Shown: piece after piece, positions 1 to 31,906 of the stretch
How the letters are laid out: the number at the start of each line of letters is the position of its first letter
Numbering within the stretch: the first letter of the stretch is position 1
Assembly: GCA_963706445.1 (NCBI GenBank)
Contig: OY970160.1
Location: forward strand, 544,001 to 608,000
Direction: 5' to 3'
DNA length: 64,000 bases
DNA from: an uncultured Nitrososphaerales archaeon
GTDB taxonomy: Archaea; Thermoproteota; Nitrososphaeria; Nitrososphaerales; Gagatemarchaeaceae
Translations under genes and position numbers: made by a program
The notes under the pieces: generated by a model
The model's input: the letters and a program-made list of their open reading frames with translations, nothing else
Databases searched by the model: none
Told to the model about the DNA's origin: nothing

Positions 1-2
1 GG

Positions 3-245
3 AAGAGGAGCTCGAGGCCGAAGGTCCCGAGGAAGTGCGTCAGGTGCGGGGCGATGGCCAACGCGGAGGCCGAGACCTGCTCCAAGTGCGGCATGGCCAT
101 GAGCCTGACGGCCGCCATGAAGAAAGATGAGGAGTTCGAAGAGATGCAGCGGAAGATGTCTGTCGTCCTGGACTGGATCAAGGGGCAGAAGGGCGGGGAG
201 AAGGTCCTGCACCTGAAGCCCGGTGACATCCAGCCGAGTGCATGA
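3..245 (+). CDS. C-terminus of a probable tyrosine integrase (5' partial)
   Basis: Frame open from base 3: PKVPRKCVRCGAMANAEAETCSKCGMAMSL plus coiled-coil tail, like the Zn-ribbon C-terminus of archaeal proviral integrases; at provirus edge. Catalytic residues not in window. Confidence 0.65.
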   Translation, partial: KRSSRPKVPRKCVRCGAMANAEAETCSKCGMAMSLTAAMKKDEEFEEMQRKMSVVLDWIKGQKGGEKVLHLKPGDIQPSA

Positions 246-284
246 CATTAACCTTAAGTGTGTTGGACGCATCGAACTCGAAGC

Positions 285-887
285 ATGCCGGGCGAGCATC
301 TGCAGGAGACCACCGTAGAAGACCTCAGGCACTCGAAGAAGGTCGCCGGTGAGCTCAACCCGGTGGTCATCGACAAAAGGACGGGCAAGGTCGTCTCCGG
401 GGAGCACCGCCTGGAGGCCGGCTGGAAGAAGATCGTCTACATAGAGACCAAGGACGACGCCGAGTTCCACAGGCTCAGGATGCACTACAACCTGCAGCGC
501 AGGCTGGCGCCTGACGAATGGTCGAATGAGTTCATCGAGTATGCCGAGGCGCTCATCAAGACAGGGCTCCCATATCCGGAGGTCCTGAAGGAGCTCCTCG
601 AAAACGCCCCGTTCAAGGACAAGAAGTACGCCTACGAGTTCATCCCGGACTACCTGAAGAGCAACGAAGGGAGGCCTCGCCAGTTTCAGGAATCTGAAAC
701 TCAGGCTCCGGAGCCTTTCACCCACGGAGGCTTCACCTTCGGGCCGAAGGACGAGGCCCCTGCCGCCAAGATAGGCGGCCTCGACTCCCACGAGTTCTGT
801 CCCGAGTGCGGGCGCAAGGTAGAAGTCACGTGCAAGGGCTGTGGGACGCCGCTCAGGTCAACGAACAGCGGCTACGTCAAAGCATGA
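285..887 (+). CDS. ParB/Srx N-terminal domain protein with C-terminal Zn ribbon
   Basis: LNPVVIDKRTGKVVSGEHRLEA (ParBc GxHR motif); CPECG...CKGCG; ATG at 285. Confidence 0.75.
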   Translation: MPGEHLQETTVEDLRHSKKVAGELNPVVIDKRTGKVVSGEHRLEAGWKKIVYIETKDDAEFHRLRMHYNLQRRLAPDEWSNEFIEYAEALIKTGLPYPEVLKELLENAPFKDKKYAYEFIPDYLKSNEGRPRQFQESETQAPEPFTHGGFTFGPKDEAPAAKIGGLDSHEFCPECGRKVEVTCKGCGTPLRSTNSGYVKA

Positions 888-1210
888 GCAAGTACTCGAC
901 GCACCGGTACTGCGGGAGCTGCTACGGCTGGCACAGGATAGACGGGAGGCCCTGCGAGGCGTGCTGGGGGGATGTCGTCTGCGCGAGGTGCGGCACGCAT
1001 GGACCCGTCCCCGACGGCAAGAACATCGTCTGCCAGAAGTGCGGCCAGACCGACACGCTCCCCTGGCGGCTCTATCGGCGGTTCATACATCCACGAGACT
1101 TGAAGAAATGTCCGAGATGTGGGAGGCTCCTCAGGATGTCCCAGAGGGACGACCGCAGGGCGAACGGCCTGAAGCGCGCCGCGCCGAAGCTCGTCATCCA
1201 GAGTTCTTGA
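884..1210 (+). CDS. Multi-CxxC zinc-binding protein
   Basis: ATGA overlap with upstream stop; five CxxC pairs. Confidence 0.7.
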   Translation: MSKYSTHRYCGSCYGWHRIDGRPCEACWGDVVCARCGTHGPVPDGKNIVCQKCGQTDTLPWRLYRRFIHPRDLKKCPRCGRLLRMSQRDDRRANGLKRAAPKLVIQSS

Positions 1211-1508
1211 TTCCCAGGTGCTCCATCATCCTCGCCTGCTGTTGCTCGATTTTGCCGAGCCTCTCTTCGAGGCGTCTGACCGCGTTCGCTTCGAGCGACC
1301 TTATCCGGTCGTCGAGCCTATTGTAGTCGTTCCTTCCCTGCCTTTCGAGGATGGCGTAGCCTCCGATGATCATGGAGGCGAGCAGGAGGTCGCTGGCCGT
1401 GAACAGGGTGTCCGAGGGGCTGGATAGAGGGATTTGGAGCCACGTCATGCCGTTGACGACTGCCCAGATGACTGTCAGAGCCTTCAGGACCAGAGGGAGG
1501 GCGGTCAT
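1194..1508 (-). CDS. Small membrane protein with C-terminal coiled coil
   Basis: Two hydrophobic segments then heptad-rich RLDDRIRSLE...RLEERLGKIE; last gene of the tail operon. Confidence 0.7.
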   Translation of the reverse strand: MTALPLVLKALTVIWAVVNGMTWLQIPLSSPSDTLFTASDLLLASMIIGGYAILERQGRNDYNRLDDRIRSLEANAVRRLEERLGKIEQQQARMMEHLGIKNSG

Positions 1509-2143
1509 GGGACGCTCTCGACTTCGATGAACGAGCCCGCTTTTACCTTGTCCGTGGTCACGCCATCGACCACGTCAATCTGGAGCGTCGTGGCGGTGCT
1601 CCCCACCGTGACCAGCCCTACGATCTCCAGCCAGGCCTGGTTAGACCCGTTGGCGGGGTTGGTCCCGATGTTCGTGGTGACGGCCGTCACTACCTCGCTG
1701 AACCATGCCGCGCCTGAAGCGGTCTGGTAGTGCTGGCCCACCCAGACGAGGCTCGCTCCAGCTGCGAGGGCGTGGATTTGGAAGAATATCTGGCCGGTGT
1801 TCGGGGAGACGTAGAGGAGGGCCCTGAAGCGGTAGGTCAGGCTCGGACCGAGCGGGATGGCCACCCCAGAACTCTTCGACCCGATGCTGGTCGAGACGTC
1901 CGACGTGCTCCTGAAGGTCTGGGGTATGTTCAGCGGGACCCAGGCCGTGTTCCCGACGTTCCTCTGGTAGAGGACTCCTGCCGTGAACCCTCCGGTACTG
2001 TCTGTGCTTAACGCCAGCTGACCCGGATACGCCGTGGCTGCTGCAATGTGCGTGCCCGTGTCGACGAGCAGGACCTTCTGGTTCCACCTCGCAGCGGCGA
2101 CCGGGCTCTCGCCGTCGACGAAGACTCCGCCTCCGCTTGTCAA
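1505..2143 (-). CDS. Tail fibre / receptor-binding type protein
   Basis: TTG start in TTGA overlap at 2143-2140; beta-rich G/T/S composition; distal tail position. Confidence 0.55.
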   Translation of the reverse strand: MTSGGGVFVDGESPVAAARWNQKVLLVDTGTHIAAATAYPGQLALSTDSTGGFTAGVLYQRNVGNTAWVPLNIPQTFRSTSDVSTSIGSKSSGVAIPLGPSLTYRFRALLYVSPNTGQIFFQIHALAAGASLVWVGQHYQTASGAAWFSEVVTAVTTNIGTNPANGSNQAWLEIVGLVTVGSTATTLQIDVVDGVTTDKVKAGSFIEVESVP

Positions 2144-2394
2144 AGCCCAATCACCATGAATCCTATCGTCATGGCGCACTTCCCGCCTGCAGCTGCGCCG
2201 ATGCAGAAGCCCGTGCACCCGACGTCGCCGTGGCCGGTGGCGTCCGTGTATCCCGAGCCTTCGCCTGCCGGGGTGGTCGCTATGTAGTTCACCATCGTCG
2301 AAATCGTGATGCCCAGGGAGTCGAGCCTCTTGATTTCGGCGTCCATCTTGGCCAGGACGTCGGCTGCGTCCGTCTCCCTGTTGACGGAGCTCAT
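2140..2394 (-). CDS. Small virion-associated hypothetical protein
   Basis: ATGA overlap at 2394-2391; MSSVNRETDAADVLAKM... Confidence 0.6.
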   Translation of the reverse strand: MSSVNRETDAADVLAKMDAEIKRLDSLGITISTMVNYIATTPAGEGSGYTDATGHGDVGCTGFCIGAAAGGKCAMTIGFMVIGL

Positions 2395-3710
2395 GCCAGG
2401 GGCACCGGGGCCGTGAAGGCCGTTATCGGCTGGCTCGTGACCCCGTAGATTCCCGACTGCTGAATCTTCCTCATGCCTGCCTGGAGCCCGGGGCATTTGA
2501 GCGCGATTACGGTTATGTTAGTCGACTCGATTGGGTCTCCTCCCTGCTGGCTCGTGTCGGTGTAGGGCGTCCCGTAGCCGTCCGGGAGCGAACCGTCTCC
2601 GCTCTGGGCCTGCAGGAGGACCAGCGAGTTGATGACCTGTGCCAGCGTGACCCCTCTCGAGTTAGTAGGGCTGAGGTTCAGGAGGGTCGCCAGCTGAGTG
2701 TAGGCCGCCAGGCTCCTCGTTGTGTAAGGCGGGCTTCCGGCTCCTGTCGTCAGGTTGGCAGCCGTGCCGAACTGGACGCAGCCGTCGCTTCCCATGTAGG
2801 CGAGCTTCCCCATGTTCGTCAGGGTCTGCGTGGCCAGCGAGACCTGGTTCCGCAGGAACAAGTTCATCCCCTGATAACCGCCGTCCGGGATCGCGCTCGT
2901 GCTGACGTTGATCGCCCCGTTGGCGAGGGTCTGGTTGCAGGTCGGGAGCCAGAAGTAGCCAGGCCACGGGACGCCTGCGTCGGCTCCTCCAGGGGTCCAG
3001 AGAGTCGTCCGGTCTGCGTGGGTGACGGGGCTCGCCCCGAAGATGCTGAAGACGTGGCCCAGGGGAGCCGTCGCCCAGCCGATGGCCGTGGTGCCGTCCA
3101 TGCCGATGTTCGTGTTCTTCTTCGAGTAGGGGATTATCCTGCCCGTGAACGAGTCGTCGTTCCAGGTGTCGTGATATGGGATTCCGTCCCTGGTCGGAGG
3201 CATGAAGGCCGCGCTGTTCAGAGAGGCGACTGCGCTGAAGACCCTGCCAGAGATGTCTCCGTAGGTAGTCCCTGCGTAGTTCTCCCTGATGCCGTAGGCG
3301 ATCTTCAGGTTCTCGTTGGGCTCATAGGTGTAGAACTTCGGAGTCCCGACCGACGGGTGGGCCGAGTCTTTGTAGTAGCATCCGGTCGACAACGGGGTAG
3401 ACCCTGTCTTGGTCGTGCCCTGTCCGATGAGGTTGACCGTGGGGTTCCATCCGGCCGTCAGGAAGTTGATGGCTGCCTTGGCGTCGAACGAGTTCGACGG
3501 GGAGCCGACGGTCGCTGTGGCGACGTCTGTGAACCCTGCCCCTTCGCCAAGGAGCTGGGCGAGGTAGTTGCCTCCTCCTCCGCCGCCGAAGGACCCCGTG
3601 AGCTGGGTCTTGGCGCTTATCCTCTTGAGCGATGCATTGTAGGCCGCTATCAGGTCGGCGACGTTCTGGGGCCTGTTCGTGCTCGTCACGTGGACGATGC
3701 ACCCGTCCAC
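2391..3710 (-). CDS. Putative tail-associated protein (439 aa)
   Basis: Long ORF in tail operon, Gly/Thr-rich. Confidence 0.65.
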   Translation of the reverse strand: MDGCIVHVTSTNRPQNVADLIAAYNASLKRISAKTQLTGSFGGGGGGNYLAQLLGEGAGFTDVATATVGSPSNSFDAKAAINFLTAGWNPTVNLIGQGTTKTGSTPLSTGCYYKDSAHPSVGTPKFYTYEPNENLKIAYGIRENYAGTTYGDISGRVFSAVASLNSAAFMPPTRDGIPYHDTWNDDSFTGRIIPYSKKNTNIGMDGTTAIGWATAPLGHVFSIFGASPVTHADRTTLWTPGGADAGVPWPGYFWLPTCNQTLANGAINVSTSAIPDGGYQGMNLFLRNQVSLATQTLTNMGKLAYMGSDGCVQFGTAANLTTGAGSPPYTTRSLAAYTQLATLLNLSPTNSRGVTLAQVINSLVLLQAQSGDGSLPDGYGTPYTDTSQQGGDPIESTNITVIALKCPGLQAGMRKIQQSGIYGVTSQPITAFTAPVPLA

Positions 3711-4285
3711 TGAAGGGTGGTCGTCAGGGTCGAGTTCGCCGGGTAGGTGATCGTCGGCGAGTAGAGCGCGCGTTGGAGCATGGACCCGCCCGTGATGAGG
3801 TTGAAGATCCCCTCCTCGGCGATGGTGTTGCCGCAGGCTGGCGAGGTGTTCGGGAAGAAGGCGTCTATCTCCATGCCTTTCCCGGACGAAATCGTAAAGA
3901 TGTTCGAGGCGTTGACCCTGTCCTTCTCTGTCTGTAGGGCCGAGTCTCCGGCTGCCGGCGCGGTCGAGCCCGTGCCTATGGCCTGATACTTCGGGAGGCT
4001 GCTCGACGTCCCGATGAGGATGCTGACGACCAGGACCAGGCCGTCGTCGACCGTCTTGTTGTGTGGGGCCCAGAGTCGCCTCGGCAGGGTCCGCCCGAGG
4101 ATCTTTCTCGGCGTGCAGAGCCTTCCCCAGCTGGCGAGGACCCTGTCCTTCTCGAGCTCGTGCATCAGGCCGACAGAGAGGTCCTTCTTGCCGAACAGGC
4201 TCCGGTAGTGGTCATAGCTCGGGACCGTGTCCGGGTTCCAAGCCATGCCCCAGCCAGTCCCTTTGAACAGAACACCCTCTTTCAT
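3686..4285 (-). CDS. Tail-collar/fibre-like protein
   Basis: YQAIGTGSTAPAAGDSALQTEKDR motif typical of phage tail fibre/collar proteins. Confidence 0.65.
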   Translation of the reverse strand: MKEGVLFKGTGWGMAWNPDTVPSYDHYRSLFGKKDLSVGLMHELEKDRVLASWGRLCTPRKILGRTLPRRLWAPHNKTVDDGLVLVVSILIGTSSSLPKYQAIGTGSTAPAAGDSALQTEKDRVNASNIFTISSGKGMEIDAFFPNTSPACGNTIAEEGIFNLITGGSMLQRALYSPTITYPANSTLTTTLQWTGASST

Positions 4286-4304
4286 ACCCGCGATTTCTCC
4301 GGAC

Positions 4305-4315
4305 GGCTCTTTAAC
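4305..4315 (-). promoter_or_regulatory. Viral late promoter-like motif GTTAAAGAGCC
   Basis: Motif G lies 30 nt before ATG at 4285. Confidence 0.6.
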
Positions 4316-4316
4316 A

Positions 4317-7300
4317 TCAAATCAATTCGACGGCCTGGATGTGGAACACCGTCGGGCCCCTCGCCTGCTTCTGGGTCTCGAAGACGAAATCCATCCCCAT
4401 CACTTGGAAGTATTCGTTCAGCCCGGTCTGGACGGTGATGACAGTGACCAGCTGGCCGAGCTTCGGGAGCCTCTCCGGGATGTAGCAGTAGCAATCCAGG
4501 ACCCGCTTGCCGCTGCCCGAGAGGCTGACCTGGGCCACGACCAGGTTCACCATCGTCTGCCTGTCTCTGACGTTCTGGTCCGTGACGACGTCCTCCGAGA
4601 GCAGGTATTGGCTCTGGCTGACGGCGTTGTCCGCCTCCGTGACGATGAGCGGGGCCGAGTAGGTCCTGAAGGCGTAAGTGATTGTCGACGCCGTAGGAGT
4701 CCATGCCTGTCCCGTCGGTCGACGTGGCCTTCCTTCCCGAGGTGCCCGAGTCGTGGTACCAGCCATAGGTGTTGCCGGAGTCTCCTATCATGGCCAGGGC
4801 TATCCAATACTTCTGACCGACGAGCACGGTCTGGCTCCCGATGTCTGCCTGGACCCAACCGCCCCCCGAGAGGACGGTCGACACCGGGACCGTGAACTGC
4901 TTGACCAGAGCCCCAGGGACGCCTCCGACGTCGACGAAGACGTAGCCCTGCAGGTCTCCGGTCGGCGTCCCGGTCTTGTTGACGTAGATTCCGATGTATT
5001 GAAGCGTCTCCTGGGTCGGCGCGAACTGGAAGGCAATCCAATTGGCGTTGATCTTGTCGGCTCCTCCCACGACCGACGTCGAACTCTGGTCGATGACGGT
5101 GCTGTCCGTGCCTCCCAGCCCGTAGAGGCGGTTGACCAGGTCGGCGGAGGTGTCCTCGAACGAGAAGACCGCATCGTCGACGGCGTAGAGGACCCTGCTC
5201 TGGTCGTTCCAGGCCGCTCCCGTGGCCGGGTCGTCTGTGATGAGCGCCAACGAGTCCACAATCTCCGGGAAGGCGAAGTGGAGAATCTTCTCCTCGTCGA
5301 CCCACCAAACGCAGCCGGCCTGGGCTGCCAGGTCGTTCAGGATGTCGCTGATGCGCTTGTAGGGCGCGACGTAGCTGGGGATCGATATACCCGTGCTCGC
5401 TATGGTCGAGTTGTAGCCAGTGCCTGCGTAGAGCTGGGCCACCTCTCCGAGCGCCTGCTGGCCGACGGCCACGTCTCCGTCAGACATGGCCCGGTTGATG
5501 ACCTTCACGTCGTCGATGGTCGCGTTGAGCTTGCCCGCTCCGCTCCCCTCTGCCCCTATCCCCAGGGCCGTGTTGTTAGCGACTGGGACGTCAGAGTAAC
5601 TCCCCTGGGCCACCAGAATCCCGTCGACGTAGAGGCTCAGGTTCACCATATCGTAGACCCCGACGACGTGGTGCCAGGCTCCGGTCGAATAGCCCGTGGT
5701 CGCGTCGACGTATCTGAAGGCTGACCCTGTCCCGAACGAGACCCGGAAGGCTCCGGCGTTGGTGACCTGCAGGGCGTAGTTCCGGTTGTTATCTGCCAGC
5801 CCTTTGATGACGATGCTCGTGACCGAGCCCGGGGTGGCGATGACATAGACCCAGGCGGCTATCGTGAACGGCCCGGGGATGTCCAGGGTCGCCGCGTCCT
5901 GGACGGTCAGGTAGTTCGTCGACCCGTCGAAGGTCAGGGCGTGGCCGAAGAGCGAGTTCTGGCCGGAGGCCCAGGTCGGGGAGCCCGTGGCCGTGGCGTT
6001 GTTCCCGTTCCCGCTGACGTCTCCCGGGGTGGTCCCGGAACCTTCGTCGAGCGGCAGGTAGAGCACGAGGTTCGCGCGTCCGGGCCCTACCGTGTGGTAT
6101 TCGATTCCCTCATACTGGAAGACGGTCTGCTGCTGGGTCGGGTAGGCAGACTTGTCCGTGAGCACGAGCTTGACCAGGTTGCCCAGCTCGGTCGTCTGGT
6201 CCGTGCTGTCCACCGTGACGCCGTCCGACTGCTTCTTCTGGAACCTCGAGAAGTTGCCGATGCGCCTGGTGAGCCTCTGGGTCCAGTCGAAGCCGGCCAC
6301 CTCGTAGACCAGCCTCCCCAGGGCTGGCACCGTCGTCTTGTTTCCTGTGACCCGGCCGCTGAAGAACTTCACATACTCGCCTGACCTGCCCGCCCAGATG
6401 TCGACAGGGGTGTCGAGCAGGATCTTCCCCAACAAGACCTGGCCGGAGTCCTCTATCTCCAAGTTGAACGTCGACGCCACTCCTTCGGCTCCTCCGTTCG
6501 TGGTGATGCTCAGGAGGTTGAAGTCTGTCCTCGGGGCGACCGTGATGGGCGGGCTCGTGGCCAGCGTGAGGACCTCCTGGGCGGTGAGGACCCGGTCGTA
6601 GGCTCTGGGGTCGTCCACGGTCGAGTTCTGGGCGTGGTTCACCCCGTCGCCGAAGATGACCTTGTAGCCGGCCGAGACTCTGACGGTGACGGCGAGGGCG
6701 TGCTGGTCGAGCTGGACCCCGTCCAGGTAGAGCGTGATGGTCGCGCCATCGTAGGTCATGGCGAGGTGGTGCCAGCCGTTCAGGGGGGCCGTGTTCGAGC
6801 CGGGGCTGTAAGTGTGCTGGGAGTTGCCCGAATCGCAGAGCCCGTACTGGATTGCAAGGTTGCCGAGGACCTGGATCCACCAGTCGTAGTTCGCGGAGTT
6901 GCTCGTGCCTCCCGTGGCCTTTCTGACGATTACCTCGAGCAGCTGGGACGGAGCCTGCGCGAGGTAGGCCCAGGCGCAGATGCTGAACCCGCCGGTGAAC
7001 TGCAGGGCCGCGTTGTCGGCGACCTCGACCCAGTTGGCTGTGCCGAACTGGAGGGCGTCGCCGAACTTTCCAGGGACCCATGCCGGGGAGCTGATGAGGC
7101 TGCCCGTGTTCCCGTTGCCGCTCTTGTCTGTGGCCGTCGACCCGGTCCCGTCGTCCAGGGGCCAGTAGCCGACCAGGCCCAGGGGGACCGTCGGAGCCGC
7201 CGAGCCGTAGGGGTCTGCGACGTAGGTGAACCCCGGGGTCTTCAGCTGGACCTTCGCCAGCATGGGGCCCGTCTTGAACGGCCCAGTAGGCGGAGGCGGA

Positions 7301-7926
7301 GGCGCAGCTTGGGACGTCCTGAGCTCTATGGCAGCTGCTACCCAGCCAGCGGTGCCCGAGCCTGTCTCCCCAAGGGTCAGGGCCGCCGGCGTGGCGTTGG
7401 TGATGTCCTCGAGGCAGCTCGAGACAACTATCCCATAGATGTCCTGCCGGTTCAGGGTCACCCCTGCCCCGTAGGCTGCCATCGTGACGTTCAGGTGGAC
7501 GACCCAGCCGCCGACCACCCAGTTGTTGTTGTCCTGGGTCGTGACAGCCAGGGTCCCGGGGTCGGCCGATGCGCTCGAGGAGCTGTTCACGTTCCCGATT
7601 GCCGTGACGCTGGTGTAGGACACCGTCTCGGCCGTGAACTTCCCCGACCCGCTGTTGGTGACCGTGATGACGTTGGAGGCTGCCCCGGCGGTGGCGATGC
7701 AAGTCCAGATTTCGACAGAGACGCCTGCCGACCCGCCTGCGATCCCGGTCGCCTTAGAATAGCTGTTCCCTGCCGTGTCCGTGATTGTGGAGACCGACCT
7801 GGCGGAGCCTACTGCGAGGCCGACCAGGACGACTACACAGTCTCCGATGGCAGTCGCGACGGCAGGGAGCGCCCCGGAGATGGCGTTGAACGAGCCGCCC
7901 GTGATGTTCTTCCTGACGCTGGCCAA
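4317..7926 (-). pseudogene. Large tail/adhesin protein with two LamG domains, interrupted by a 1-nt frameshift at ~4706 (about 1202 aa if corrected)
   Basis: LamG motifs WPLDDGTGSTATDKSGNGN and LPLDEGSGTTPGDVSGNGN; removing one G from ACAGGCATGG joins STDGT to AWTPTASTITY..., ending at the stop at 4317. Confidence 0.8.
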
Positions 7927-7927
7927 T

Positions 7928-9379
7928 CTACACCCGCCGTTGGACCTGGGTCTTGAGGGTCTTCAGCATCCAGTCGGTGAGCTCCTGCTTGCTCCCGATG
8001 TAATTCGGGAAGTTGATCTGGTAGACCGTGGCCCCGCCGTTCATGTTCGGGACGTTGGGGGCGCCTGTCAGAGGGACGACCGCCTCGGGGCCGCTTTCGC
8101 CGATGAGCGCGTAGGTCGGCTGGGTGACTATCCCCCCTTCGGCCAGCCCGAGCGCCGAAAGGCCTCCGCTGATGTCTCCTCCTATGGACCCGATGACCCC
8201 GGTGACGTCCTTCACCCCGCCGACCACCAGGTTGATTGCGTCGATGATTGGCTGGATTGCCGTCATTATCGCGCTGAAGATCCCCTGCAGGACTCCCCAG
8301 ACTGTCTGGACGACGGTCTGAATCCCATTCCAAAGGTCGCCCCATGCGGTCTCGAACGCCCCGATTATCGTCTGGATGATTGCCCAGTTGGTCGAGAAGT
8401 AGCCGGAGATGACGTCCCAGACGACCTTCGCCACGGCCTGGATTCCGTCCCAGATGACACCCCAGGCCTTTGCGAAGTCGGCGACGGCTGCCTGGATGAG
8501 CTCGATTATCGGCTTGATGTAGGGGTAGAGGAAGTCGACCACGGCCTGGAACTTCTCCCTGATGCCTCCCCAGTCGTTGGTCCAGGCTTCGTAGAGCACG
8601 GCCATGATTGCGATTATGGCCACGGCTATCAGGATGAGCGGATTCGCGTCCATCACGGCGTTGAACACTCCCTGGGCCGCTGTCATCGCGCCCTGTCCTG
8701 CAGTCACAATCGCCGCCATGGCCGAGTGGGCCGCTCCTGCCAGGGTAGATGCGATGCCCATGCCTGCGAGCCCTCCGGCCAGGTTGGCCACGCTGAAAAT
8801 TAGGTTCGGGATCTTCAGGGCGATGCCGACCAGAGCCTCGTCGTATTTCTGCTGGGCGCTGTTGACGTTGTCGGTCGCCTTCTTCTGGGCGTCCAGGGCG
8901 GTCGTGAGCTTGGTCTGCGCCGCGAGGGCCGCTGCGCTGTTCGGACCTCCTGCGGCCACGGCGTCGTTGTAAGCCTGCTGGTCCGCTGTCACGGCCTGGT
9001 TGGCGCTGTCGAGGGCCAGGTTAGCCGTGTTCAGGTTGTTCTGGGCCGACGTCATCGTGTTGACGATGCTCGTGACCTGGCTCCCTACCGAGGCGAGGCC
9101 CTGGAACGCCTTCTGGCTCTCCATCAGGGTCGTGTTGCCCTGTTTCCAGTTGTTCCAGCTGAGGTTCACCTCCGTGTTGGAGTCCCGCATCGCGGTCCTC
9201 TGCTGGGAGATTGCTTCGTGCAGATAGTTCGCGGCGTCGGTGGCGTCCTGGTCGGCCTGGGCCATCGACTCCGTCGACGTGCTGGCGTCGGCTGCGGAAC
9301 TGGCGATGTCCTCGAACCCGGCGGCGGCGTCTGTCAGGCCGTCGGCCGTGACCTGGTAATCGATGGGGATGTCGACCAA
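7928..9379 (-). CDS. Tail tape measure protein
   Basis: Ala-rich helical protein with NPLILIAVAII, periodic Trp repeats (WGVIWDGIQAV), C-terminal LAEGGIVTQPTYALIGESGPEAVVPL. Confidence 0.9.
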   Translation of the reverse strand: MVDIPIDYQVTADGLTDAAAGFEDIASSAADASTSTESMAQADQDATDAANYLHEAISQQRTAMRDSNTEVNLSWNNWKQGNTTLMESQKAFQGLASVGSQVTSIVNTMTSAQNNLNTANLALDSANQAVTADQQAYNDAVAAGGPNSAAALAAQTKLTTALDAQKKATDNVNSAQQKYDEALVGIALKIPNLIFSVANLAGGLAGMGIASTLAGAAHSAMAAIVTAGQGAMTAAQGVFNAVMDANPLILIAVAIIAIMAVLYEAWTNDWGGIREKFQAVVDFLYPYIKPIIELIQAAVADFAKAWGVIWDGIQAVAKVVWDVISGYFSTNWAIIQTIIGAFETAWGDLWNGIQTVVQTVWGVLQGIFSAIMTAIQPIIDAINLVVGGVKDVTGVIGSIGGDISGGLSALGLAEGGIVTQPTYALIGESGPEAVVPLTGAPNVPNMNGGATVYQINFPNYIGSKQELTDWMLKTLKTQVQRRV

Positions 9380-9733
9380 CTACGCCGACCCCACGAAGTC
9401 GTTGAACGCGTCCTCCAGCCTGCCGTCCATCTCCGCCAGGATGGCCAGGACCGCCGGCGCCAGATAGGGCTGGGCTGCCTGCCTCGAGGTCCCGAACTCG
9501 ACATAGCTGGCGTAGGGCGCCGAAGCTCCCAGAGACCAGCCCCAGGCTGTGGCCGAGACTTCGATGCTGTCTCTCAGCCTCCCGGTCCGGACGGGCACAA
9601 TCTCGCGGGCGTAGGTGGCCATGTCCTCCAGGGAGCCGAGGATGACTTCGACGTCGACCTTCTCCAGGCTCTTGGCTATGGCCCGGGTCTTCCTGATGGC
9701 GTCCTCCAGCCCTGAGACGCTGAAATCACTCAC
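9380..9733 (-). CDS. HK97 gp10-like tail completion protein
   Basis: PVRTGRLRDSI...YASYVEFGT...QPYLAPA signature. Confidence 0.85.
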   Translation of the reverse strand: MSDFSVSGLEDAIRKTRAIAKSLEKVDVEVILGSLEDMATYAREIVPVRTGRLRDSIEVSATAWGWSLGASAPYASYVEFGTSRQAAQPYLAPAVLAILAEMDGRLEDAFNDFVGSA

Positions 9734-10273
9734 GGTAGAACTCCTCCGTGTTCGTGTCCATCTTCCGCTTCGCCTCCTGCAGGGATTCGACCAGGAGCCA
9801 GGACTGGATGAGTTTGGAATCTGCCGTCTCCGCCTCCTCTATCGAAAGGTGGTAATCGAGGACCAGGTGCCGGAGCCTCATGCTCCGCCGGAGCCAGGGC
9901 GTCAGGGTGCGCTGGTCGCCGAAGAAGACGAAGCGGCGGAGGCCGCGAGCTTCGTCCTTTCCGATAAAAAAAGGCCGTTGTATTTCTGGACAAGCTGGTC
10001 GACGATGGAACGCCTCCCGAGCTCCAGGTCCTCGGGGGTGACGCCTGCAGGCTCGACGATGGCCAGGGCGATTGCTCTGTAGGTGAGCGCCATCTTCTGC
10101 TCCGGGGTCTCCGCCTTCGCGTTGCCGATCTCGTCGTAGGCCTTGGCGTGGCTCTTGTCTTCGAAGACGAAGTGAAACTTCTCCCCGCTGACCGGGTCGA
10201 CCACGTCGAAGGGGTAGGTCCTCGGCGTGAGGAACGACTGCATCTTCTGGAGCTCTGTGGGCTCTGTCTCCAT
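9726..10273 (-). CDS. Tail assembly chaperone long form (gpGT-like) via -1 frameshift at 9971-9965
   Basis: T TTT TTA heptamer in correct phase; -1 frame open to TGA at 9726. Confidence 0.8.
9902..10273 (-). CDS. Tail assembly chaperone short form (gpG-like)
   Basis: ATG at 10273 immediately after tail tube stop; METEPTELQKM... Confidence 0.8.
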   Translation of the reverse strand: METEPTELQKMQSFLTPRTYPFDVVDPVSGEKFHFVFEDKSHAKAYDEIGNAKAETPEQKMALTYRAIALAIVEPAGVTPEDLELGRRSIVDQLVQKYNGLFLSERTKLAASAASSSSATSAP

Positions 10274-10275
10274 GT

Positions 10276-11676: not shown

Positions 11677-12056
11677 GATGCTGGGGCTCCTGCTGCAAAC
11701 TTGGCGTCGAGGGCTGCTACGAGGGCGTTGGCGATGGCCTGGTCAGATGCCGGGAGCTTTGCGATCTCTGTCTGGGCGATTGCCTTTGCGTCCGTCCAGG
11801 TCTTGGCGATTCCGGCGGTGGTGGTGGTCGACCCGACCGGGACGGTCCCGGTGTCGACGAAGGCGATGAGGTCAGAGACCACGTCGCCTCCCAGGACTCC
11901 GACTCCTGTGGCGACGGCGGTGACGAGGGCCTGGTGTGCAGGCGAGAAGGCGCTTGCGATTGCTGGGACGTTCCCGGCCACGAAGCCGAGCACGCCTCCG
12001 AGAGACCAGAGGATGCGGTCGAGGATGTTCTTCTGCTTTAGCGACAGTGATACCAT
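11673..12056 (-). CDS. Small two-helix membrane protein (holin-like candidate)
   Basis: Two hydrophobic segments after a basic N-terminus; preceded by promoter motif. Confidence 0.55.
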   Translation of the reverse strand: MVSLSLKQKNILDRILWSLGGVLGFVAGNVPAIASAFSPAHQALVTAVATGVGVLGGDVVSDLIAFVDTGTVPVGSTTTTAGIAKTWTDAKAIAQTEIAKLPASDQAIANALVAALDAKFAAGAPAS

Positions 12057-12080
12057 TTGCGAGTTCTCAAGTCGCAGGCA

Positions 12081-12091: not shown

Positions 12092-12096
12092 GGGAC

Positions 12097-20948: not shown

Positions 20949-21187
20949 TTGACTGTCCCTCCTTCGAGGCGGTGGTGCAGACGGGACCGTGTGACCTTGT
21001 TCTGGACTGTCCCGACTTTCAGTCCCAGTAAGGATGAGATCTTCAGCAGAGGGACGCCGCCCTCGAAGAGCCGCTTGAGCACGGACACCTCCTTTTCGGT
21101 CCAATGATGATAATTGACTTGGTTTTCAGCGATCATTTTGTCGAGTTCCTTCTCGAGGTCCTTGCCGGACAGTTCGAGGAGCTTCAT
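20945..21187 (-). CDS. Small helix-turn-helix protein (Myb/GcrA-like)
   Basis: HWTEKEVSVLKRLFEGG...ISSLLG...TVQNKV. Confidence 0.65.
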   Translation of the reverse strand: MKLLELSGKDLEKELDKMIAENQVNYHHWTEKEVSVLKRLFEGGVPLLKISSLLGLKVGTVQNKVTRSRLHHRLEGGTVK

Positions 21188-21972
21188 GCTTTCACTCTTG
21201 GAGGCTTTGCCTCTCGTAGGTTGTATAGCTTCGAGTCCCAGTCGTAGGCGTTTCCATCGACTGCGAACCTGACCGAGCCGATGTCAGGGATGGAGCCGGC
21301 AGATGTCTTGCGCTGCACGAACCAGGTCTGGAGCTGCCAGCATGGAGTGAGCAAAGCAAGCTTGGAGGACGAGCCGACGTACCAGTAGTAGTGGTTGTGG
21401 GACCTGACCAAGACGTCGAAGGGCCATTTGTGGCTCTGGTTCAGCTGTGCGAGCATCATCTCCTTGGCCGGAGGCGTCGAGCGATACATCCAGCCTGAGA
21501 CGGAGCCCGAGATATGGTGGGCGAAGCTGAACGTGACCCCTTCGACGTCCAAGAACAGCTCGTTGGAGACGAACCTACCGTCGACCTTTTCGGCGCCTAT
21601 GCGCTGACCGAATATCTCCTCGATGGAGACGCCGCCTTGCTCGACGTGATAGTTACTGCCCCTGGTGACGTAGGTCTTCTTGGCACCGAACATCTTAACC
21701 AGGCCCACCGAGGCGTCTATCTGGTCGAGGTAGTTGGTGGTCCATGCTTCCACGCCCTTATCCTTTGGCTGCTGGCCGTCGATGGGCTCGCCATTGATGA
21801 CAAGTATGTCGGGGTTCTTCCAGGCTTTGACGGTCTCGATCCATGCTCTGTGCAATGCACGCTGGACCTTGTTGGCAGTGTAGGTGGCGTCGTTCGAGTC
21901 GGTGAAGACAAGTGGACAGACGGCGAGCCTGTGGCCGACGTGGATGTCGCTCAGCACCAAGACGGTCTTCAT
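21184..21972 (-). CDS. Calcineurin-like metallophosphoesterase (viral type)
   Basis: SDIHVG, NGEPIDG, GSNYH, HH, RSHNH motifs. Confidence 0.85.
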   Translation of the reverse strand: MKTVLVLSDIHVGHRLAVCPLVFTDSNDATYTANKVQRALHRAWIETVKAWKNPDILVINGEPIDGQQPKDKGVEAWTTNYLDQIDASVGLVKMFGAKKTYVTRGSNYHVEQGGVSIEEIFGQRIGAEKVDGRFVSNELFLDVEGVTFSFAHHISGSVSGWMYRSTPPAKEMMLAQLNQSHKWPFDVLVRSHNHYYWYVGSSSKLALLTPCWQLQTWFVQRKTSAGSIPDIGSVRFAVDGNAYDWDSKLYNLREAKPPRVKA

Positions 21973-22162
21973 AGCCTGGCTCCGCACTCGCACTCATGGG
22001 TCTTGTGCGGGTTGTTCATGACGACCGGGGGCATCGAACGGACGGCGACGCTGAACCTCGGGACCTTGCAGGCGTGCCTGGAGCGGGCCTTCCCGTCGGC
22101 TCCTCTGTGGTAGCTCCTCCAGGTGACGCCACAGGCGGGGACCTGGACCTGGACCTTGCTCA

Positions 22163-23533
22163 TCATGGCTCCCGCGTCCATCTCCTCAGGGCCACCATGA
22201 AAGCGTCCAACGAATCCATGCTGCTCTTCCCCGACTTGTCGACCTTGCGGCCGCCTTTGGCCCACCGTGCGTTCTTCAGCTGCCAGAGCAGGGTCTTGAA
22301 CCTGGGGCTTATCCGCACCCTGCGCTTCTCGAGCATCAGCTGGGTCGACGTTATCATGGACGGCAGCTCGGAGCCGAAGCTGACGGGCTTGCAGTAGACG
22401 CCCAGCTGGTCGAGCTCCTGGATGAACGGCATGTTGCTGGCGTCACAGGCCGCCCCGGTGTATCCGTCCTGGACGTAGAGGTTGGTGATGGCCACGCTCA
22501 TGTCATGGAAGTTGGGCCTCTCGTACTCCTCGGCAGCGATCACATAGAGCGCGTCGCCTCTGTCTTCGATGCCGCAGACGGCGAACATGGAGCTGCCGAA
22601 CCCGGTGTCAACCCCGATCTCCTTCTCGAACTCAGCCCTGGGCGCCAGGTCGTAAGGCTCCACGCAGGCGTCGACGTCATCGGGCCTGAAGACGTCACCA
22701 GTGCCTGCCTGGGGCTGCCCGAGCCAGAAGACTTTGTAGTTGCTCGACGGGTTGGCCATGGCCCTGCGTGCCTCGTCGATCTGCACCGCCAGCGGCTGGA
22801 TCCAGGGCCTGCGGTCCACTTCGTGGATGAAAGGAGGCTCGGTCTCAGCCCATGGGTGCTTCATCCAGGGGCCATAGCGGTTGTAGCCCCACTCGTCGGC
22901 GTTCTTCCACGTCTCCATGAAGATTGGGTCCTGGTAATAGGGCGCCGATGCGAGGATTCGAACCCCTCCGGTGGTGACGGACGCAAGCGCCCCGGACAGG
23001 ACTTCGCCGCCCTGGGTCTTCGACGCGAGGACCGCCTCGTCAGCCATGACGATATGAGGGTGCCAGCCGTGGGCGCTGTAGTAGCTGCTGGCGTAGACGC
23101 GGATCTCAGCACCGCCTTTGAGCTTGGCTGTCACAGCGAGTGGTTCTTCGTCCAGGAAGGCCCAGGTGTGTTTGCCGGTTCTGAGGAGGTGTTTGACATG
23201 GCCGTAGGTGATCTTGGCCTGGTCCTCCGAGCCAGCTATGACTCCGACGTTCTTGAACGGCGAGTACAGCATCAGCTCGATGGCGAGTATGCTCAGGGTG
23301 AGGCTCTTGGCGGTCTCCTTGGCGCCCATGATTATTGAGTCGTGGGGATTATTCCAGAACTCGGTCAGGAATGCGCCTCTGTCTTCCTTTTCACTGAGCC
23401 AATCGAGTCCTTCCCATTCTTGCTTGGCGAAGGCTATCGGGTCAACGAAGTCAGGCAGAGCCACCTCGGTCACGTCCTGGCTGAGCTTCCTGTGTTCGAG
23501 GCCTGGGAACTGCGCCTGCCGAGGCAGTTTCAC
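22163..23533 (-). CDS. Terminase large subunit
   Basis: GAKETAKS, AGSEDQA, Walker B IVMADEA, nuclease GVDTG...DSLDA. Confidence 0.9.
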   Translation of the reverse strand: MKLPRQAQFPGLEHRKLSQDVTEVALPDFVDPIAFAKQEWEGLDWLSEKEDRGAFLTEFWNNPHDSIIMGAKETAKSLTLSILAIELMLYSPFKNVGVIAGSEDQAKITYGHVKHLLRTGKHTWAFLDEEPLAVTAKLKGGAEIRVYASSYYSAHGWHPHIVMADEAVLASKTQGGEVLSGALASVTTGGVRILASAPYYQDPIFMETWKNADEWGYNRYGPWMKHPWAETEPPFIHEVDRRPWIQPLAVQIDEARRAMANPSSNYKVFWLGQPQAGTGDVFRPDDVDACVEPYDLAPRAEFEKEIGVDTGFGSSMFAVCGIEDRGDALYVIAAEEYERPNFHDMSVAITNLYVQDGYTGAACDASNMPFIQELDQLGVYCKPVSFGSELPSMITSTQLMLEKRRVRISPRFKTLLWQLKNARWAKGGRKVDKSGKSSMDSLDAFMVALRRWTREP

Positions 23534-26898: not shown

Positions 26899-27047
26899 AG
26901 GGGCCGCCAGACCTTCTCCATTCGGCCATGACACAGCTTGGTCTCTCCGCGCACCAAGCCCCGCTTCTCCAGCTCCAGCATCATGTCCAGCCGTTCGTTC
27001 TGGGACCGAGGCCAGCGACTTTCGATTTCGGTCACGCAGATGTTCAT
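26895..27047 (-). CDS. 50-aa protein, winged-helix-like (not in ORF track)
   Basis: MNICVTE...LELEKRGLVRGE...KVWRPL; ATGA overlaps at both ends. Confidence 0.55.
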   Translation of the reverse strand: MNICVTEIESRWPRSQNERLDMMLELEKRGLVRGETKLCHGRMEKVWRPL

Positions 27048-28432
27048 GCCGCCACGACCTCCTCGACCTTGACCTCTGTCGGGAGCCGGTACATCCCGTT
27101 CTCTTCCTTGACCATCAGGCCTTCCCTGATGTAGGGGGCGACGTTGCTGGCGAAGTTCTTGGCGCTGAAGGGCCAGCCCTGCTCGACGAAGGACGCCCCG
27201 ATGTCCTTGGGGTAGACGGCGCGGTTGAGCCTGTTGAGGACGTAGACGACCTTGCCGATGAATGAGTCCGACTCCAGTTTGGTGACTTGGAGGGTGAAGG
27301 CGGCGAGGGTCGTGGTGGCGGTCTGGGGTGGGGCGGGGGGTGATTTTGCAACCCGATTAGGCCGATCCGCGGAGTTCGGCGTTTGTTCTCCCTCCATCAA
27401 CGATGCATCGTGCGGGGGTCTCGCCCCATCCATCTCGTCCTCGACCTTGTCGTGGATTTTCTGGAACTCGGAGCCGAGGCCTTGGTCTTTGTGCCTGGCG
27501 TGCTCGTCCAGGAGCTGTTGCAGCTCCGGTTTCTTCTCGCGTGGTTTGCGTCCTTCGAAGACATCCCTGAACCTCGCGATGAACTCACCGACGTCCATCG
27601 GGTGGATTTTGCTGGCGTCGAAGCGCTTGAGGTTCTCCCTGGTGGCATGGAAGGTCTCGCGCACCCTAAACTTCGTGCGCACCCCAGGGACGTTCATGTC
27701 GGGGCCCCAGACGTAAGCCTCTCCGTCCTTCAGGTTGCTCAGGGAGTCGAGCCACTTGTCGAGGGTCTTCTTGTCGGACATCCTGTTGACAGCCCACGCT
27801 GCCACCGCAGCCTTGTCCTGGGGGGCGTTGGTCCTCAGCACCACCAGGAAGTCGGACTGCGTGAGGACGTTCTTGTTGATGACCGCGCTCCTCTGGGAGA
27901 TGAGGGAGCAGCCGAGGTTCCTGTTGCCGCCCCTCCTGACGAAGTTGTCCACGGCCCCCAGGCAGACGGTCTCGTTCTTCATCGGGTGCTGCGGGGCGAT
28001 GACGTCCGCCTCCTCCAGGAAGATGTGCCTGTCGTTGGTGTTGGTCCTGCGGAGCTCGTCCAGGAACAGGGGAATGAACTTCTGCACGGCCGCGTGGCTG
28101 AGCTCGGAGATGTCGACGACCGCCGAGACGTTGCTCTGGATCAGGGCGTCGGCCAGCTTCTCTGCCTTCTCCGGCTCCAAGGGGAGATCCCCATGCTCGC
28201 CCCCGAAGACCACCACGGGCAGGCCCTTGCCCTTGCCGTCGAACCCCACGCGCAGGCCCCACCAAACGCCCATCGGGTCCAAGACTATGATCGGGATGCC
28301 GGCCTTGACCATCTCCTCCGCGAGGACGGCCGCGGCCCAGGTCTTGCCCGCCCCCCTGATGGCCAGGAACGAAAATACACGCCTTGCAGCGTCGAGAGAG
28401 AGCTCGAGCTCCGGGGAGATCCTGAGGTTCAA
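27044..28432 (-). CDS. HerA/FtsK-superfamily ATPase (DUF87/DUF853-like)
   Basis: AIRGAGKT, VLDPMG, IFLEEAD, RRGGNRNLG, ISQR motifs; possible C-terminal wHTH. Confidence 0.85.
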   Translation of the reverse strand: MNLRISPELELSLDAARRVFSFLAIRGAGKTWAAAVLAEEMVKAGIPIIVLDPMGVWWGLRVGFDGKGKGLPVVVFGGEHGDLPLEPEKAEKLADALIQSNVSAVVDISELSHAAVQKFIPLFLDELRRTNTNDRHIFLEEADVIAPQHPMKNETVCLGAVDNFVRRGGNRNLGCSLISQRSAVINKNVLTQSDFLVVLRTNAPQDKAAVAAWAVNRMSDKKTLDKWLDSLSNLKDGEAYVWGPDMNVPGVRTKFRVRETFHATRENLKRFDASKIHPMDVGEFIARFRDVFEGRKPREKKPELQQLLDEHARHKDQGLGSEFQKIHDKVEDEMDGARPPHDASLMEGEQTPNSADRPNRVAKSPPAPPQTATTTLAAFTLQVTKLESDSFIGKVVYVLNRLNRAVYPKDIGASFVEQGWPFSAKNFASNVAPYIREGLMVKEENGMYRLPTEVKVEEVVAA

Positions 28433-28433: not shown

Positions 28434-28952
28434 CTATGCGCCCTCCTTCTTGTTGAGGGCCGTGACGAAGCGATGGTTCGGGTGGTCCCTGTCGTGGGTC
28501 GCTATCGCGTCCGACGGGTCCTTCCCAGATACCTCGTGCCTGACCTCCGTCGGGCCTACCTTGCAGACGAAGACGTAGTGCTTGTCTGTTGTCGAAATGT
28601 CTGGGATGTTGGAGGAGGGCCCCGCCGCTGAAGAAATCTCGCGGCGGGTTCCATGCGTCACAGTTTGGTGGTGCTTCATCCCTTGTGTCGTGCTGAAGGT
28701 CTTGCCGCAGTCTGGGCAGCTGGTAGGGCCCTTTGCGGTCCTGCCTCCGTGCTGCTTCCTGACGTGGTGGTTCAGGCTGTCCTTGGTCTTGAAGTCCTTG
28801 CCACACTGGTCGCAGGCCATCCGGGTGCCGTTCCTGGAGGGCTTCGCTACTGAAACTGCCCCCCCCGTTTGTTTTGCGAGGTAGCTGCGCAGCAGGGTCC
28901 CGATCTCCTCCGGGGTCCCTTCGACCTCTATCCCTGAGATGTTGGTTCTCAA
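28434..28952 (-). CDS. Tandem C2H2 zinc-finger protein
   Basis: CDQCGKDFKTKDSLNHHVRKQH and CPDCGKTFSTTQGMKHHQTVTH. Confidence 0.85.
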   Translation of the reverse strand: MRTNISGIEVEGTPEEIGTLLRSYLAKQTGGAVSVAKPSRNGTRMACDQCGKDFKTKDSLNHHVRKQHGGRTAKGPTSCPDCGKTFSTTQGMKHHQTVTHGTRREISSAAGPSSNIPDISTTDKHYVFVCKVGPTEVRHEVSGKDPSDAIATHDRDHPNHRFVTALNKKEGA

Positions 28953-30417: not shown

Positions 30418-30635
30418 CTGGCCGGGTCCCTCTTGGCGCTGATCCTACTCTCGAGGTCCTTGGCTATCCGACTGACGATCTCGTCCGCGCACTCGTCGCA
30501 CGCGAACCTGGTCACGCCCTCGATGGTCGTGGAATAGCCGTCCTCGGCAAGGGTGACACCGTTGCGCTTCCTGCAGGCCTTCGTCAGCTCGAAGTCGCAG
30601 TGTTCGGCTTTGGTCTCGAGGACGGTGGTGGTCAT
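30414..30635 (-). CDS. Small Zn-binding protein
   Basis: HCDF...C...ACDECA. Confidence 0.6.
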   Translation of the reverse strand: MTTTVLETKAEHCDFELTKACRKRNGVTLAEDGYSTTIEGVTRFACDECADEIVSRIAKDLESRISAKRDPAR

Positions 30636-30805
30636 CTTGCCGGCGCCGCCTGCAGCTTCTCGTACTTGTAGGCCAGGCCCAACGCGAAGTGGATCGCGTC
30701 GGTGCTCGTCTTGATGCGGTTTCTCTCCTTGAAGGCGAGGAACTCCTCAGCCTCTTTGTCCTCAAGGTCGATCCTGATGTGGATCGGCTCAGTCTTTTGT
30801 CCCAA
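30632..30805 (-). CDS. 57-aa ribbon-helix-helix regulator (not in ORF track)
   Basis: MGQKTEPIHIRIDLEDKEAEEFLAFKERNRIKTSTDAIHFAL; first gene of the leftward operon. Confidence 0.7.
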   Translation of the reverse strand: MGQKTEPIHIRIDLEDKEAEEFLAFKERNRIKTSTDAIHFALGLAYKYEKLQAAPAR

Positions 30806-30940
30806 AATCACTCACGCGCACTCTGAAGCAATAGTGAATATAAGTGTTTGCTAATCACTACCAATGCACGGGATATGCTATACCAAAAGTGTAGTGAGTC
30901 CAAATCACTTATAATCACCTCTGTTCCTGTAGGATGACCG
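30806..30940. promoter_or_regulatory. Divergent promoter/operator region
   Basis: AT-rich; AATCAC at 30806, 30853, 30903, 30913; TAGTGA at 30832, 30892; TATA-like AATATAAG and TTATAA. Confidence 0.7.
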
Positions 30941-31351
30941 ATGCCGAAGAAAGCGGAAGGCAGATACAACGTCCGGGTGAACTTCGAAGGTGACGAACTG
31001 GGCAGATTGAGAGAAGTCATGGACCACTATGGCATGACGGTGGGGACTGAGCTGATCCTGATGCTCCTGAAGCGCGAATACGACCAGCTGCACAACACGA
31101 AGCCCCGCTTCGAGCACGTCAACCCCAAGGAGGGCTATCCCACCGACCACGTCTCCATCCTGGATAGAGAACTTGGGAATGGGGGACGGATCGTGAGCGT
31201 GTACTTCAAGCGCGACAGGGCCCCCTTCTGCGACTACGACCAGGGGAGCGAGTGCGTCCACGTCGACTACGCCTGGCAAATCCCCACGGTCGCCGAGCGC
31301 CTTCGCAAGGAAGGGTTCAAGAGTCCAGGCGAGAAGCAACAGAGGAGGTGA
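30941..31351 (+). CDS. RHH-like regulator with C-terminal metal-binding domain (repressor candidate)
   Basis: YNVRVNF beta strand plus two helices; FCDYDQGSECVH. Confidence 0.65.
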   Translation: MPKKAEGRYNVRVNFEGDELGRLREVMDHYGMTVGTELILMLLKREYDQLHNTKPRFEHVNPKEGYPTDHVSILDRELGNGGRIVSVYFKRDRAPFCDYDQGSECVHVDYAWQIPTVAERLRKEGFKSPGEKQQRR

Positions 31352-31358
31352 ATAGAGA

Positions 31359-31751
31359 ATGGGAAAATACCTATGTCCTAACACGAATTGCAAGGACCTC
31401 GGCAGGTACGAAGAGGGTCAGGCCTGCCCTACCTGCGCACAGACCATCAGGAAGCTCGGGATCACGGAGACGTTCAGCGTCAGCAAGGCCAAGAGGCAGA
31501 GTGCGGGAGACGAGGCCGCGCTCCTGGTGACCGCCGACATGAGCGACGAAGAGATCAGGGAGCTGGCCGAGCAAGACATGGCCAACCTGGCCAAGCACGA
31601 GGCTGGGACCAAGTGGATGAGGGTCGGCACGCTGCTGTCGGGCAGCTCTACTGACCAGATGCTCGGAGCAGGGTTCAAGGCCATCATCGACCAGAACAAG
31701 ATCCTCATCCGGCAGAACGAGCTCATCCTGAGGGCGCTGAAGAAGGAGTAG
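31359..31751 (+). CDS. Zn-ribbon plus coiled-coil protein, last proviral gene
   Basis: CPNTNC...CPTC; AIIDQNKILIRQNELI. Confidence 0.65.
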   Translation: MGKYLCPNTNCKDLGRYEEGQACPTCAQTIRKLGITETFSVSKAKRQSAGDEAALLVTADMSDEEIRELAEQDMANLAKHEAGTKWMRVGTLLSGSSTDQMLGAGFKAIIDQNKILIRQNELILRALKKE

Positions 31752-31906
31752 GGGAACTTGACCCGCAGGTCCCATGCCCGCCCGGGGCAGGACTTCCACA
31801 TCAAAGAGTCTTGATTTTCGATTGCCGATGGGGCTTCAGGCCTAGGGCCATGAGGAAATACGCCGCAGAACCGCGCTCGGCAATCAGGGAGGACGAGGAG
31901 TAAGGT

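Follow-up and report, generated by a model that had tools for sequence, protein, structure and literature searches.

The 64,000 nucleotides of DNA analysed here (the window; bases 544001-608000 of a single contig of 1,817,757 bp, OY970160.1) come from the genome of an uncultured Nitrososphaerales archaeon (assembly GCA_963706445.1), and their left half is occupied by the provirus of a tailed virus, 32,744 bp long from attachment (att) repeat to att repeat. This element is very probably a decaying and defective temperate provirus, not the near-complete virus that a preliminary description, made from the letters of the window alone, had proposed. According to the scenario that we favour, a temperate tailed virus (Caudoviricetes) would have used its tyrosine integrase to enter the host chromosome at the 3' end of the tRNA-Glu(CTC) gene, which would have left an 11-nucleotide (nt) direct repeat at either end of the element. 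Decay after integration would have included a deletion of about 2.7 kb by which the capsid gene, cut after codon 283, was fused to codon 70 of a gene further downstream. The four final beta-strands of the HK97-fold protein would have been lost in this way, as would four complete genes between capsid and tail. As the capsid gene is cut, the element as sequenced would be unable to build its own capsid and would persist as a cryptic provirus.

Terminase, portal, capsid, tail tube, chaperone, tape measure and baseplate/fibre genes follow each other in canonical order on the minus strand, which carries nearly all genes of bases 1-31800. Membership of the Caudoviricetes is indicated by the HK97-fold capsid family, by the large terminase subunit (TerL) and the portal, and by a tail module with tube, -1 frameshift chaperone and tape measure. 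Profile searches confirmed the packaging and tail genes proposed previously (TerL, portal, tube, gp10-like protein, tape measure and large tail protein). By its gene content, the virus would have had a long non-contractile tail and a siphovirus-like morphology. The morphogenesis genes are interrupted: the capsid gene is truncated, four genes are deleted and a tail protein apparently changes frame at 4712.

Integration site and borders of the provirus

The tRNA-Glu(CTC) gene lies 954-1029 bp left of the window and the integrase gene begins directly after it, about 900 bp left of the window. The left att copy is the 3' end of this tRNA gene (955-965 bp left of the window), and the element therefore begins about 965 bp before base 1, where the preliminary description had made it start. 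The integrase tail seen in that description at 1-130 is indeed the 3' end of a tyrosine integrase gene (1-245, plus strand; PF00589, 7.4e-12; phrog_1, 1.4e-17), the remaining gene and its tRNA-Glu target being located up to 1 kb outside the window. On the right, the last 11 nt of tRNA-Glu, CGCCCGGGGCA, were found once more in the window, at 31779-31789, in the 155-bp gap that separates the last viral open reading frame (ORF) from the first host gene. This copy, identical to the 3' end of tRNA-Glu, forms the core of attR (31761-31789, plus strand), and it agrees with the right end placed earlier near 31800. It is accompanied by an arm, ACCCGCAGGT (31761-31770), which is the exact inverse of the 10 nt just downstream of tRNA-Glu, so that the joined attP would have a perfect 10-bp inverted repeat around the core. 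When the 155-bp gap was shuffled, a direct match was obtained in 0.2% of the trials (P = 0.002), an inverted match in 0.7% (P = 0.007) and both together in none of 20,000 shuffles. No att repeat of 12 nt or more was found, nor any repeat by blastn-short of the tRNA region against the genome, the core being only 11 nt long. Thaumarchaeal att cores are often short (median 17 bp, some of 8 bp, typically 8-26 bp; PMC6563490).

The same locus is free of the provirus in three relatives of the same genus (G004, G011 and G006), where only 1.3-3.2 kb with small, unrelated genes separate tRNA-Glu from the right-flank genes. Moreover, the portal of the provirus was found neither in 24 genus relatives nor in 16 relatives that belong to the same order but to other families. 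Flanks that are close together in relatives, and the absence of the portal, exclude both an ancestral locus and a chimeric join near 31800; the element is thus a provirus, with an integrase beside its target and att repeats at both ends. What follows tRNA-Glu is different in each of the relatives examined, which makes this flank a variable spot. At the provirus-free site of G004 (L005, 4075-5150), glyoxalase-like and GTP cyclohydrolase I-like genes, as read from their translations, stand between tRNA-Glu and a permease gene. An IS6/IS240-type DDE transposase gene is also present close to the tRNA-Glu site, about 6.2-6.9 kb left of the window.

The catalytic frame of the integrase stops at 130, and a CxxC...CxxC zinc ribbon runs on in another frame to 245, which reveals a 1-nt frameshift at about 16. 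This frameshift is missing from an independent contig (ERR12036785_4790593, here L129; 99.84% identical), in which the ribbon is in frame owing to a 1-nt indel at window base 16; it is therefore a polymorphism or an assembly error. Over 2.5 kb of the integrase region, L129 differs from the genome by three substitutions and one 1-nt indel, whereas another contig of that run, 8 kb long, matches the window without any difference, and the integrase end seems to be polymorphic in the population. A second integrase is encoded elsewhere in the genome (1522521-1523700, outside the window); it is 50% identical to that of the provirus, has its zinc ribbon in frame, and no tRNA gene was found within 7 kb of it.

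Truncation of the capsid gene

The full head module announced in the preliminary description is not confirmed: a capsid gene is present at 12038-13225, but this gene is truncated and four genes downstream of it are missing. The annotated capsid ORF has a normal-looking length of 395 amino acids (aa), and continues out of frame past residue 283. Only residues 1-283 of about 339 are kept (12377-13225, minus strand), and the remainder of the ORF is rich in Gly, Arg and Pro, as is typical of a wrong frame. A word-based search with the 395-aa ORF returned four relatives only, each of about 339 aa and aligning to the first 283 residues. Capsid residue 283 (12377) directly meets, in a different frame, residue 70 of a 170-aa gene, of which residues 70-170 remain (12097-12402, minus strand; 62% identity to L091, 12525-13037).

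We compared the junction at the protein and DNA levels (tblastn and blastn) with three viral contigs (L089, L091 and L092), i.e. one IMG/VR genome and two Logan contigs. Each of them carries an additional 2.75-2.9 kb at the junction point, a stretch encoding the capsid C-terminus and proteins of 212-266, 302-306, 133 and 49 aa. By this comparison, the capsid gene is cut and four complete genes are lost through a deletion of about 2.7 kb, and the provirus can no longer be called near-complete. The deleted genes have no match in sequence searches of Pfam, PHROGs and PDB. For the 266-aa protein of L091, we observed an unannotated homologue with 29% identity elsewhere in the genome (1048499-1049275, outside the window).

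The missing part of the capsid protein is conserved in its family. In an exhaustive profile search, which gathered 220 clusters of the capsid family, full-length members extend to profile positions 333-335, all family members other than the present copy reach about 326-335, and the 55 C-terminal residues absent here are conserved in about 220 clusters, including the near-invariant G298 and P299. The family has the HK97 fold: its profile matches the capsid protein of Haloferax tailed virus 1 (HFTV1; PDB 8qpq) at 1.6e-6, and a match to PF25209 was obtained for 12 of 85 members. For an intact homologue, an AlphaFold model built from an 85-sequence alignment reached a predicted local distance difference test (pLDDT) score of 84.8 (an earlier 5-sequence model, with a pLDDT of 37.6, was discarded). 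The best Foldseek match of this model was 8qpq (E = 8e-16), and HK97 and many other capsids were also matched. Residues 284-339 make up its last four beta-strands. No second capsid gene was found elsewhere in the genome, and the truncation argues against the production of tailed virions from this copy.

A separate public contig of 9.8 kb (run ERR12036785) is 100% identical to the window over 8,006 bp across the junction. The deletion is thus not an error of this assembly. For annotation, this case indicates that a capsid ORF may look normal in length although the gene is truncated, since in GC-rich DNA the wrong frame stays open.

Alternative explanations

Several points weigh against a defective provirus. 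At least one of the apparent lesions, the integrase frameshift, is a polymorphism or an assembly error, and the frame change in the large tail protein could be of the same nature. The genome and the independent contig that carries the deletion may stem from one sample, so that intact copies could exist in the population, and the loss of capsid function is one that we infer. In four runs, represented by low-depth contigs, no excision, attP or attB junction was observed, and around the right border (31780-31940) neither a joint nor a loose end appeared. In run X2 (peat, 2017), host contigs show no differences over 32605-39751, there is nearly no cover on the provirus and no contig bridges an empty site, so that the low cover does not speak for absence of the provirus there.

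An intact and inducible temperate virus, of which the short capsid gene would be a natural variant (or the longer form an insertion in the relatives), would account for the presence of integrase, att sites, control region, terminase, portal and tail genes, and an integrase variant without the frameshift does exist. We nevertheless consider this unlikely, given the conservation of the lost capsid residues over the whole family, the agreement of three relatives on the longer form, and the fact that the same break also cuts the downstream gene at residue 70, with a change of frame. It is very unlikely that the element depends on a helper, i.e. that it is still excised and then packaged in the capsids of a co-infecting intact relative. 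Although att sites, terminase and portal are kept, at least one integrase variant is intact and intact relatives with 64-83% protein identity occur in the environment, the four runs gave no sign of excision, this genome gave none of a helper, and the lesion resembles random decay more than the reduced but ordered gene set of known satellites.

Domestication by the host as a locus for gene-transfer-agent-like particles is one option proposed for elements of the Nvie-Pro1 type (PMC6563490), and the lack of a replication polymerase or primase by Pfam, as in earlier thaumarchaeal head-tail proviruses, would fit it. For the present element, it appears highly improbable: an integrase is present together with att sites and a control region, the capsid gene is disrupted, close relatives are found on separate viral contigs, and the provirus is absent from the 24 genus relatives, three of which lack it at this very locus. 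Nor was the element seen to be conserved vertically within the host lineage, with the portal in 0 of 24 genus relatives and in 0 of 16 relatives from other families. Finally, since the genome is a metagenome-style single contig, with one 1-nt difference from an independent contig, a chimeric viral/host join or a collapsed deletion was envisaged. Such an artefact is extremely unlikely in view of the short distance between the flanks in relatives, the att repeats exactly at both borders and the identical deletion in a separate public assembly. A temperate provirus that decayed after integration thus remains our preferred explanation.

Relatives of the provirus

Judged by protein similarity, the provirus is in an undescribed lineage and only remotely related to its nearest described relative, Nvie-Pro1 (Nitrososphaera phage Pro-Nvie1, FR725450; Krupovic et al. 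2011; PMC6563490). A comparison with 50,697 deposited phage genomes gave a single match, to the TerL of Nvie-Pro1, with 35% identity over a third of the protein; the portal and the capsid protein had no match in these records, and no relative of TerL was found in species-representative genomes. The provirus therefore belongs to no described genus, as expected from the new viral lineage put forward in the preliminary description. The rarity argument that accompanied this proposal, namely that few tailed viruses are known from Cdv-containing archaea, is dated: thaumarchaeal tailed proviruses and viruses are already catalogued (PMC6563490, PMC11849493), and large provirus surveys include Nitrososphaeria other than ammonia-oxidising archaea (PMC11849493).

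Nvie-Pro1 is likewise a tailed provirus of a soil Nitrososphaerota, with the same order of genes (terminase, portal, capsid, tube, gp10-like, tape measure, baseplate and fibre) and likewise without a recognisable replication polymerase. Six proteins in all are distantly similar between the two elements, i.e. five structural proteins and one control-region ORF, with 26-35% identity. These are only 6 of about 40 genes, and portal and capsid show no detectable similarity, which does not place the two in the same genus or family. In addition, the capsid of Nvie-Pro1 is fused to a protease, and that element lacks both an integrase and defined att sites; the present provirus possesses an integrase as well as att repeats, targets a tRNA gene, and its capsid gene is broken. 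The record of Nvie-Pro1 measures 23.75 kb including host flanks, against 32.7 kb here; all thaumarchaeal proviruses were given as under 20 kb (PMC6563490).

Much closer similarity was found in three uncultivated relatives (IMGVR_UViG_3300038415_000044, and the Logan contigs SRR22234378_14636 and SRR18214689_89356), which are collinear with the provirus from the HerA-like ATPase to the tail fibres, with 50-83% protein identity. They differ from it by an intact 339-aa capsid gene, by the presence of four to five genes deleted here, by the lack of an accessory block between the portal and the CxxCxxCC gene, and by a large tail protein of 531 aa instead of 1214 aa. These relatives are undescribed sequences without names or hosts.

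The capsid family has a wider distribution, as it was detected in 38 IMG/VR genomes and in 7 of 301 sampled Nitrososphaeria genomes. Its matches among contigs of species-representative genomes mostly concern metagenome-assembled genomes (MAGs) of Bathyarchaeia (25 out of 29). Head-tailed proviruses of Bathyarchaeia (e.g. JADHWN010000002; PMC11705971) have this HK97 capsid family in common with the provirus, at 31-38% identity, and a published Bathyarchaeia provirus also has HerA (PMC11705971). However, the TerL of the provirus was not found in three Bathyarchaeia genomes with the capsid family. The kinship thus concerns a single module, the capsid, and the hosts are of another class. The capsid protein of HFTV1, a virus with a halophilic euryarchaeal host, is the best structural and profile match to the family (template modelling score 0.65-0.69); the sequence identity is 15-16% and the comparison is limited to the capsid.

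The tailed proviruses of Nitrososphaerota described in detail (Nvie-Pro1, NCAV2-Pro1 and CalSub-Pro) have no integrases, att sites or clear borders, so that they could be taken for viruses, for relics or for domesticated particles alike (PMC6563490). The present provirus displays an ordinary temperate lifestyle in this phylum: it targets a tRNA gene, has a short att core, and carries an integrase and a divergent control region. It also captures provirus decay at a dated stage. Its intact relatives from the environment could be used as reference genomes in work on viruses of the thaumarchaea of acid soil and peat, which are abundant and uncultured. With roughly even probability, the provirus and these intact relatives (L089 and L091-L096) form a family not yet described, made up of temperate tailed viruses that target tRNA genes of non-ammonia-oxidising Nitrososphaerota in soil and that have a capsid module in common with Bathyarchaeia viruses. 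If so, in no earlier head-tail provirus of thaumarchaea would integrase, att sites and control region have been defined, and the present one would link the enigmatic att-less elements of the Nvie-Pro1 type to ordinary temperate viruses.

Other genes of the provirus

Packaging genes comprise TerL (22163-23533, minus strand; phrog_9, 2.6e-13; 83.5% identity to L091), of which the true start is probably at 23329, giving 388 aa as in the relatives, and the portal (19229-20770, minus strand; phrog_12; PF04860, 1.3e-12, 48 bits for a cut-off of 39.1). Between them, a metallophosphoesterase-like protein (21184-21993, minus strand) has a weak match to PF00149 (1.6e-3, below the cut-off). The gene of a CxxCxxCC zinc/iron-chelating domain protein (14996-15616, minus strand; PF03692, 2.1e-11) is kept beside the portal in relatives. 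In the provirus, an accessory block lies at this position (15613-19232, minus strand), encoding a 590-aa repeat protein, a glycosyltransferase-like protein (17413-18153) and proteins of 228 and 117 aa. This block is missing at the equivalent position in relatives, while homologues of the 228-aa and 590-aa proteins are located at the distal tail end in L095; the module has thus been rearranged. A 146-aa protein and a 461-aa coiled-coil protein, encoded between the portal and the capsid gene (13229-15054, minus strand), are present in all relatives with 50-79% identity. They are candidates for a scaffold and/or a maturation protease, the sole functional hint being a lead in the Atlas to Mu-like gpI / DUF2213, and they have no match in sequence searches of Pfam, PHROGs or PDB.

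The tail module begins with the major tail (tube) protein (10276-11169, minus strand; PF18906, 1.5e-3), which is 27% identical to that of Nvie-Pro1 and 69% identical to that of L091. The next gene encodes the tail assembly chaperone (9726-10279, minus strand), with a -1 slippery site T_TTT_TTA at 9965-9971; the site, its phase and the -1 frame extension are conserved in L091 (14910-15440) and L092 (10221-10750). A frameshifting chaperone between the tube and gp10-like genes is the usual layout in long-tailed viruses, and to our knowledge programmed frameshifting is seldom documented for archaeal viruses. Then come the HK97 gp10-like tail completion protein (9380-9733, minus strand; phrog_5, 3.5e-20; PF04883 on the orthologues of relatives) and the 483-aa tape measure protein (7928-9379, minus strand; phrog_58, 3.7e-19, with many other tape-measure PHROGs).

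The large baseplate-like tail protein of 1214 aa (4282-7926, minus strand) contains two Laminin_G_3 (ConA-like lectin) domains (PF13385, 4.8e-46) and is 26% identical to the baseplate protein of Nvie-Pro1. Its alignment to relatives changes frame at about 4712, an apparent frameshift outside any long homopolymer, and exact-protein look-ups found no usable independent contig across it. Three distal tail genes follow (1505-4285, minus strand). They encode a 199-aa fibre-like protein (3686-4285; phrog_5417/4176; 31% identity to the tail fibre of Nvie-Pro1), a 439-aa protein without counterpart in relatives (2391-3710) and a 237-aa protein with 49% identity to a relative (1505-2218). Beside the integrase, two zinc-ribbon proteins (258-887 and 806-1210, within 258-1210, plus strand; weak matches to Pfam DZR) are 47% and 34% identical to genes of the related viral contig L095, where both are kept at the equivalent end.

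Four copies of the motif GTTAWAGAGCC are present where chance would give 1.09 (4305-4315, 14120-14130, 17409-17419 and 18873-18883, all on the minus strand). As all copies are inside the provirus and on the strand of the structural genes, it may be a late promoter element.

Upstream of the terminase, the early region consists of small ORFs, and its only recognisable DNA-processing enzyme is an ATPase of the HerA/FtsK superfamily (27044-28432, minus strand; PF01935; PDB HerA helicases, 2.7e-9; viral DUF87 clusters of the Atlas, 0.97). This protein is 38% identical to the 'hera helicase' of MW202482 and could have a role in replication or recombination. No polymerase (PolB), primase or MCM was detected by Pfam in the provirus, so that the preliminary description was right on this absence as well as on the HerA-like ATPase. 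The adjacent gene encodes a C2H2 zinc-finger protein (28434-28952, minus strand; PF00096, 4.4e-10).

The switch region suggested earlier corresponds to a divergent control region (30632-31751), where an AT-rich spacer of 129 bp with repeated AATCAC(T) words (30812-30940) separates a small minus-strand ORF (30632-30811) from two plus-strand ORFs (30941-31351 and 31359-31751). These ORFs have no match in sequence searches of Pfam, PHROGs or PDB. By its layout, the region would be a lysogeny switch with putative repressor/Cro-like genes.

Host and flanking genes

The host is a Nitrososphaerota archaeon with the Cdv division system, as the preliminary description had held probable, and it comes from soil or peat. 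The Cdv system is confirmed by the genes of CdvB (Snf7 domain) and CdvC/Vps4 (MIT, AAA and Vps4_C domains), which adjoin each other at 59196-61291. The loci closest to that of the deoxyhypusine synthase are from soil MAGs of Nitrososphaerales/Thaumarchaeota. From the high guanine plus cytosine (GC) content, the presence of cox genes and the soil or peat origin, the host probably falls within the non-ammonia-oxidising Group I.1c / Gagatemarchaeaceae, for which a GC content of 54-62% is given (PMC10640624). A search of the genome for amoA gave no match, and control genomes were equally silent. The GC content is 58.1% for the contig and 0.58 for the genome, against 0.62-0.65 for the provirus; across bases 1-31800 it is 0.60-0.65, higher than in the rest of the window.

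On the left of the provirus, an archaeal histone gene is found directly beside tRNA-Glu. On the right, the archaeal housekeeping genes noted previously begin with the first host gene, from 31907. The right half of the window carries the genes of deoxyhypusine synthase, H+-pyrophosphatase, haem-copper oxidase and three aminoacyl-tRNA synthetases, all of them, like those of CdvB and CdvC/Vps4, at full length.

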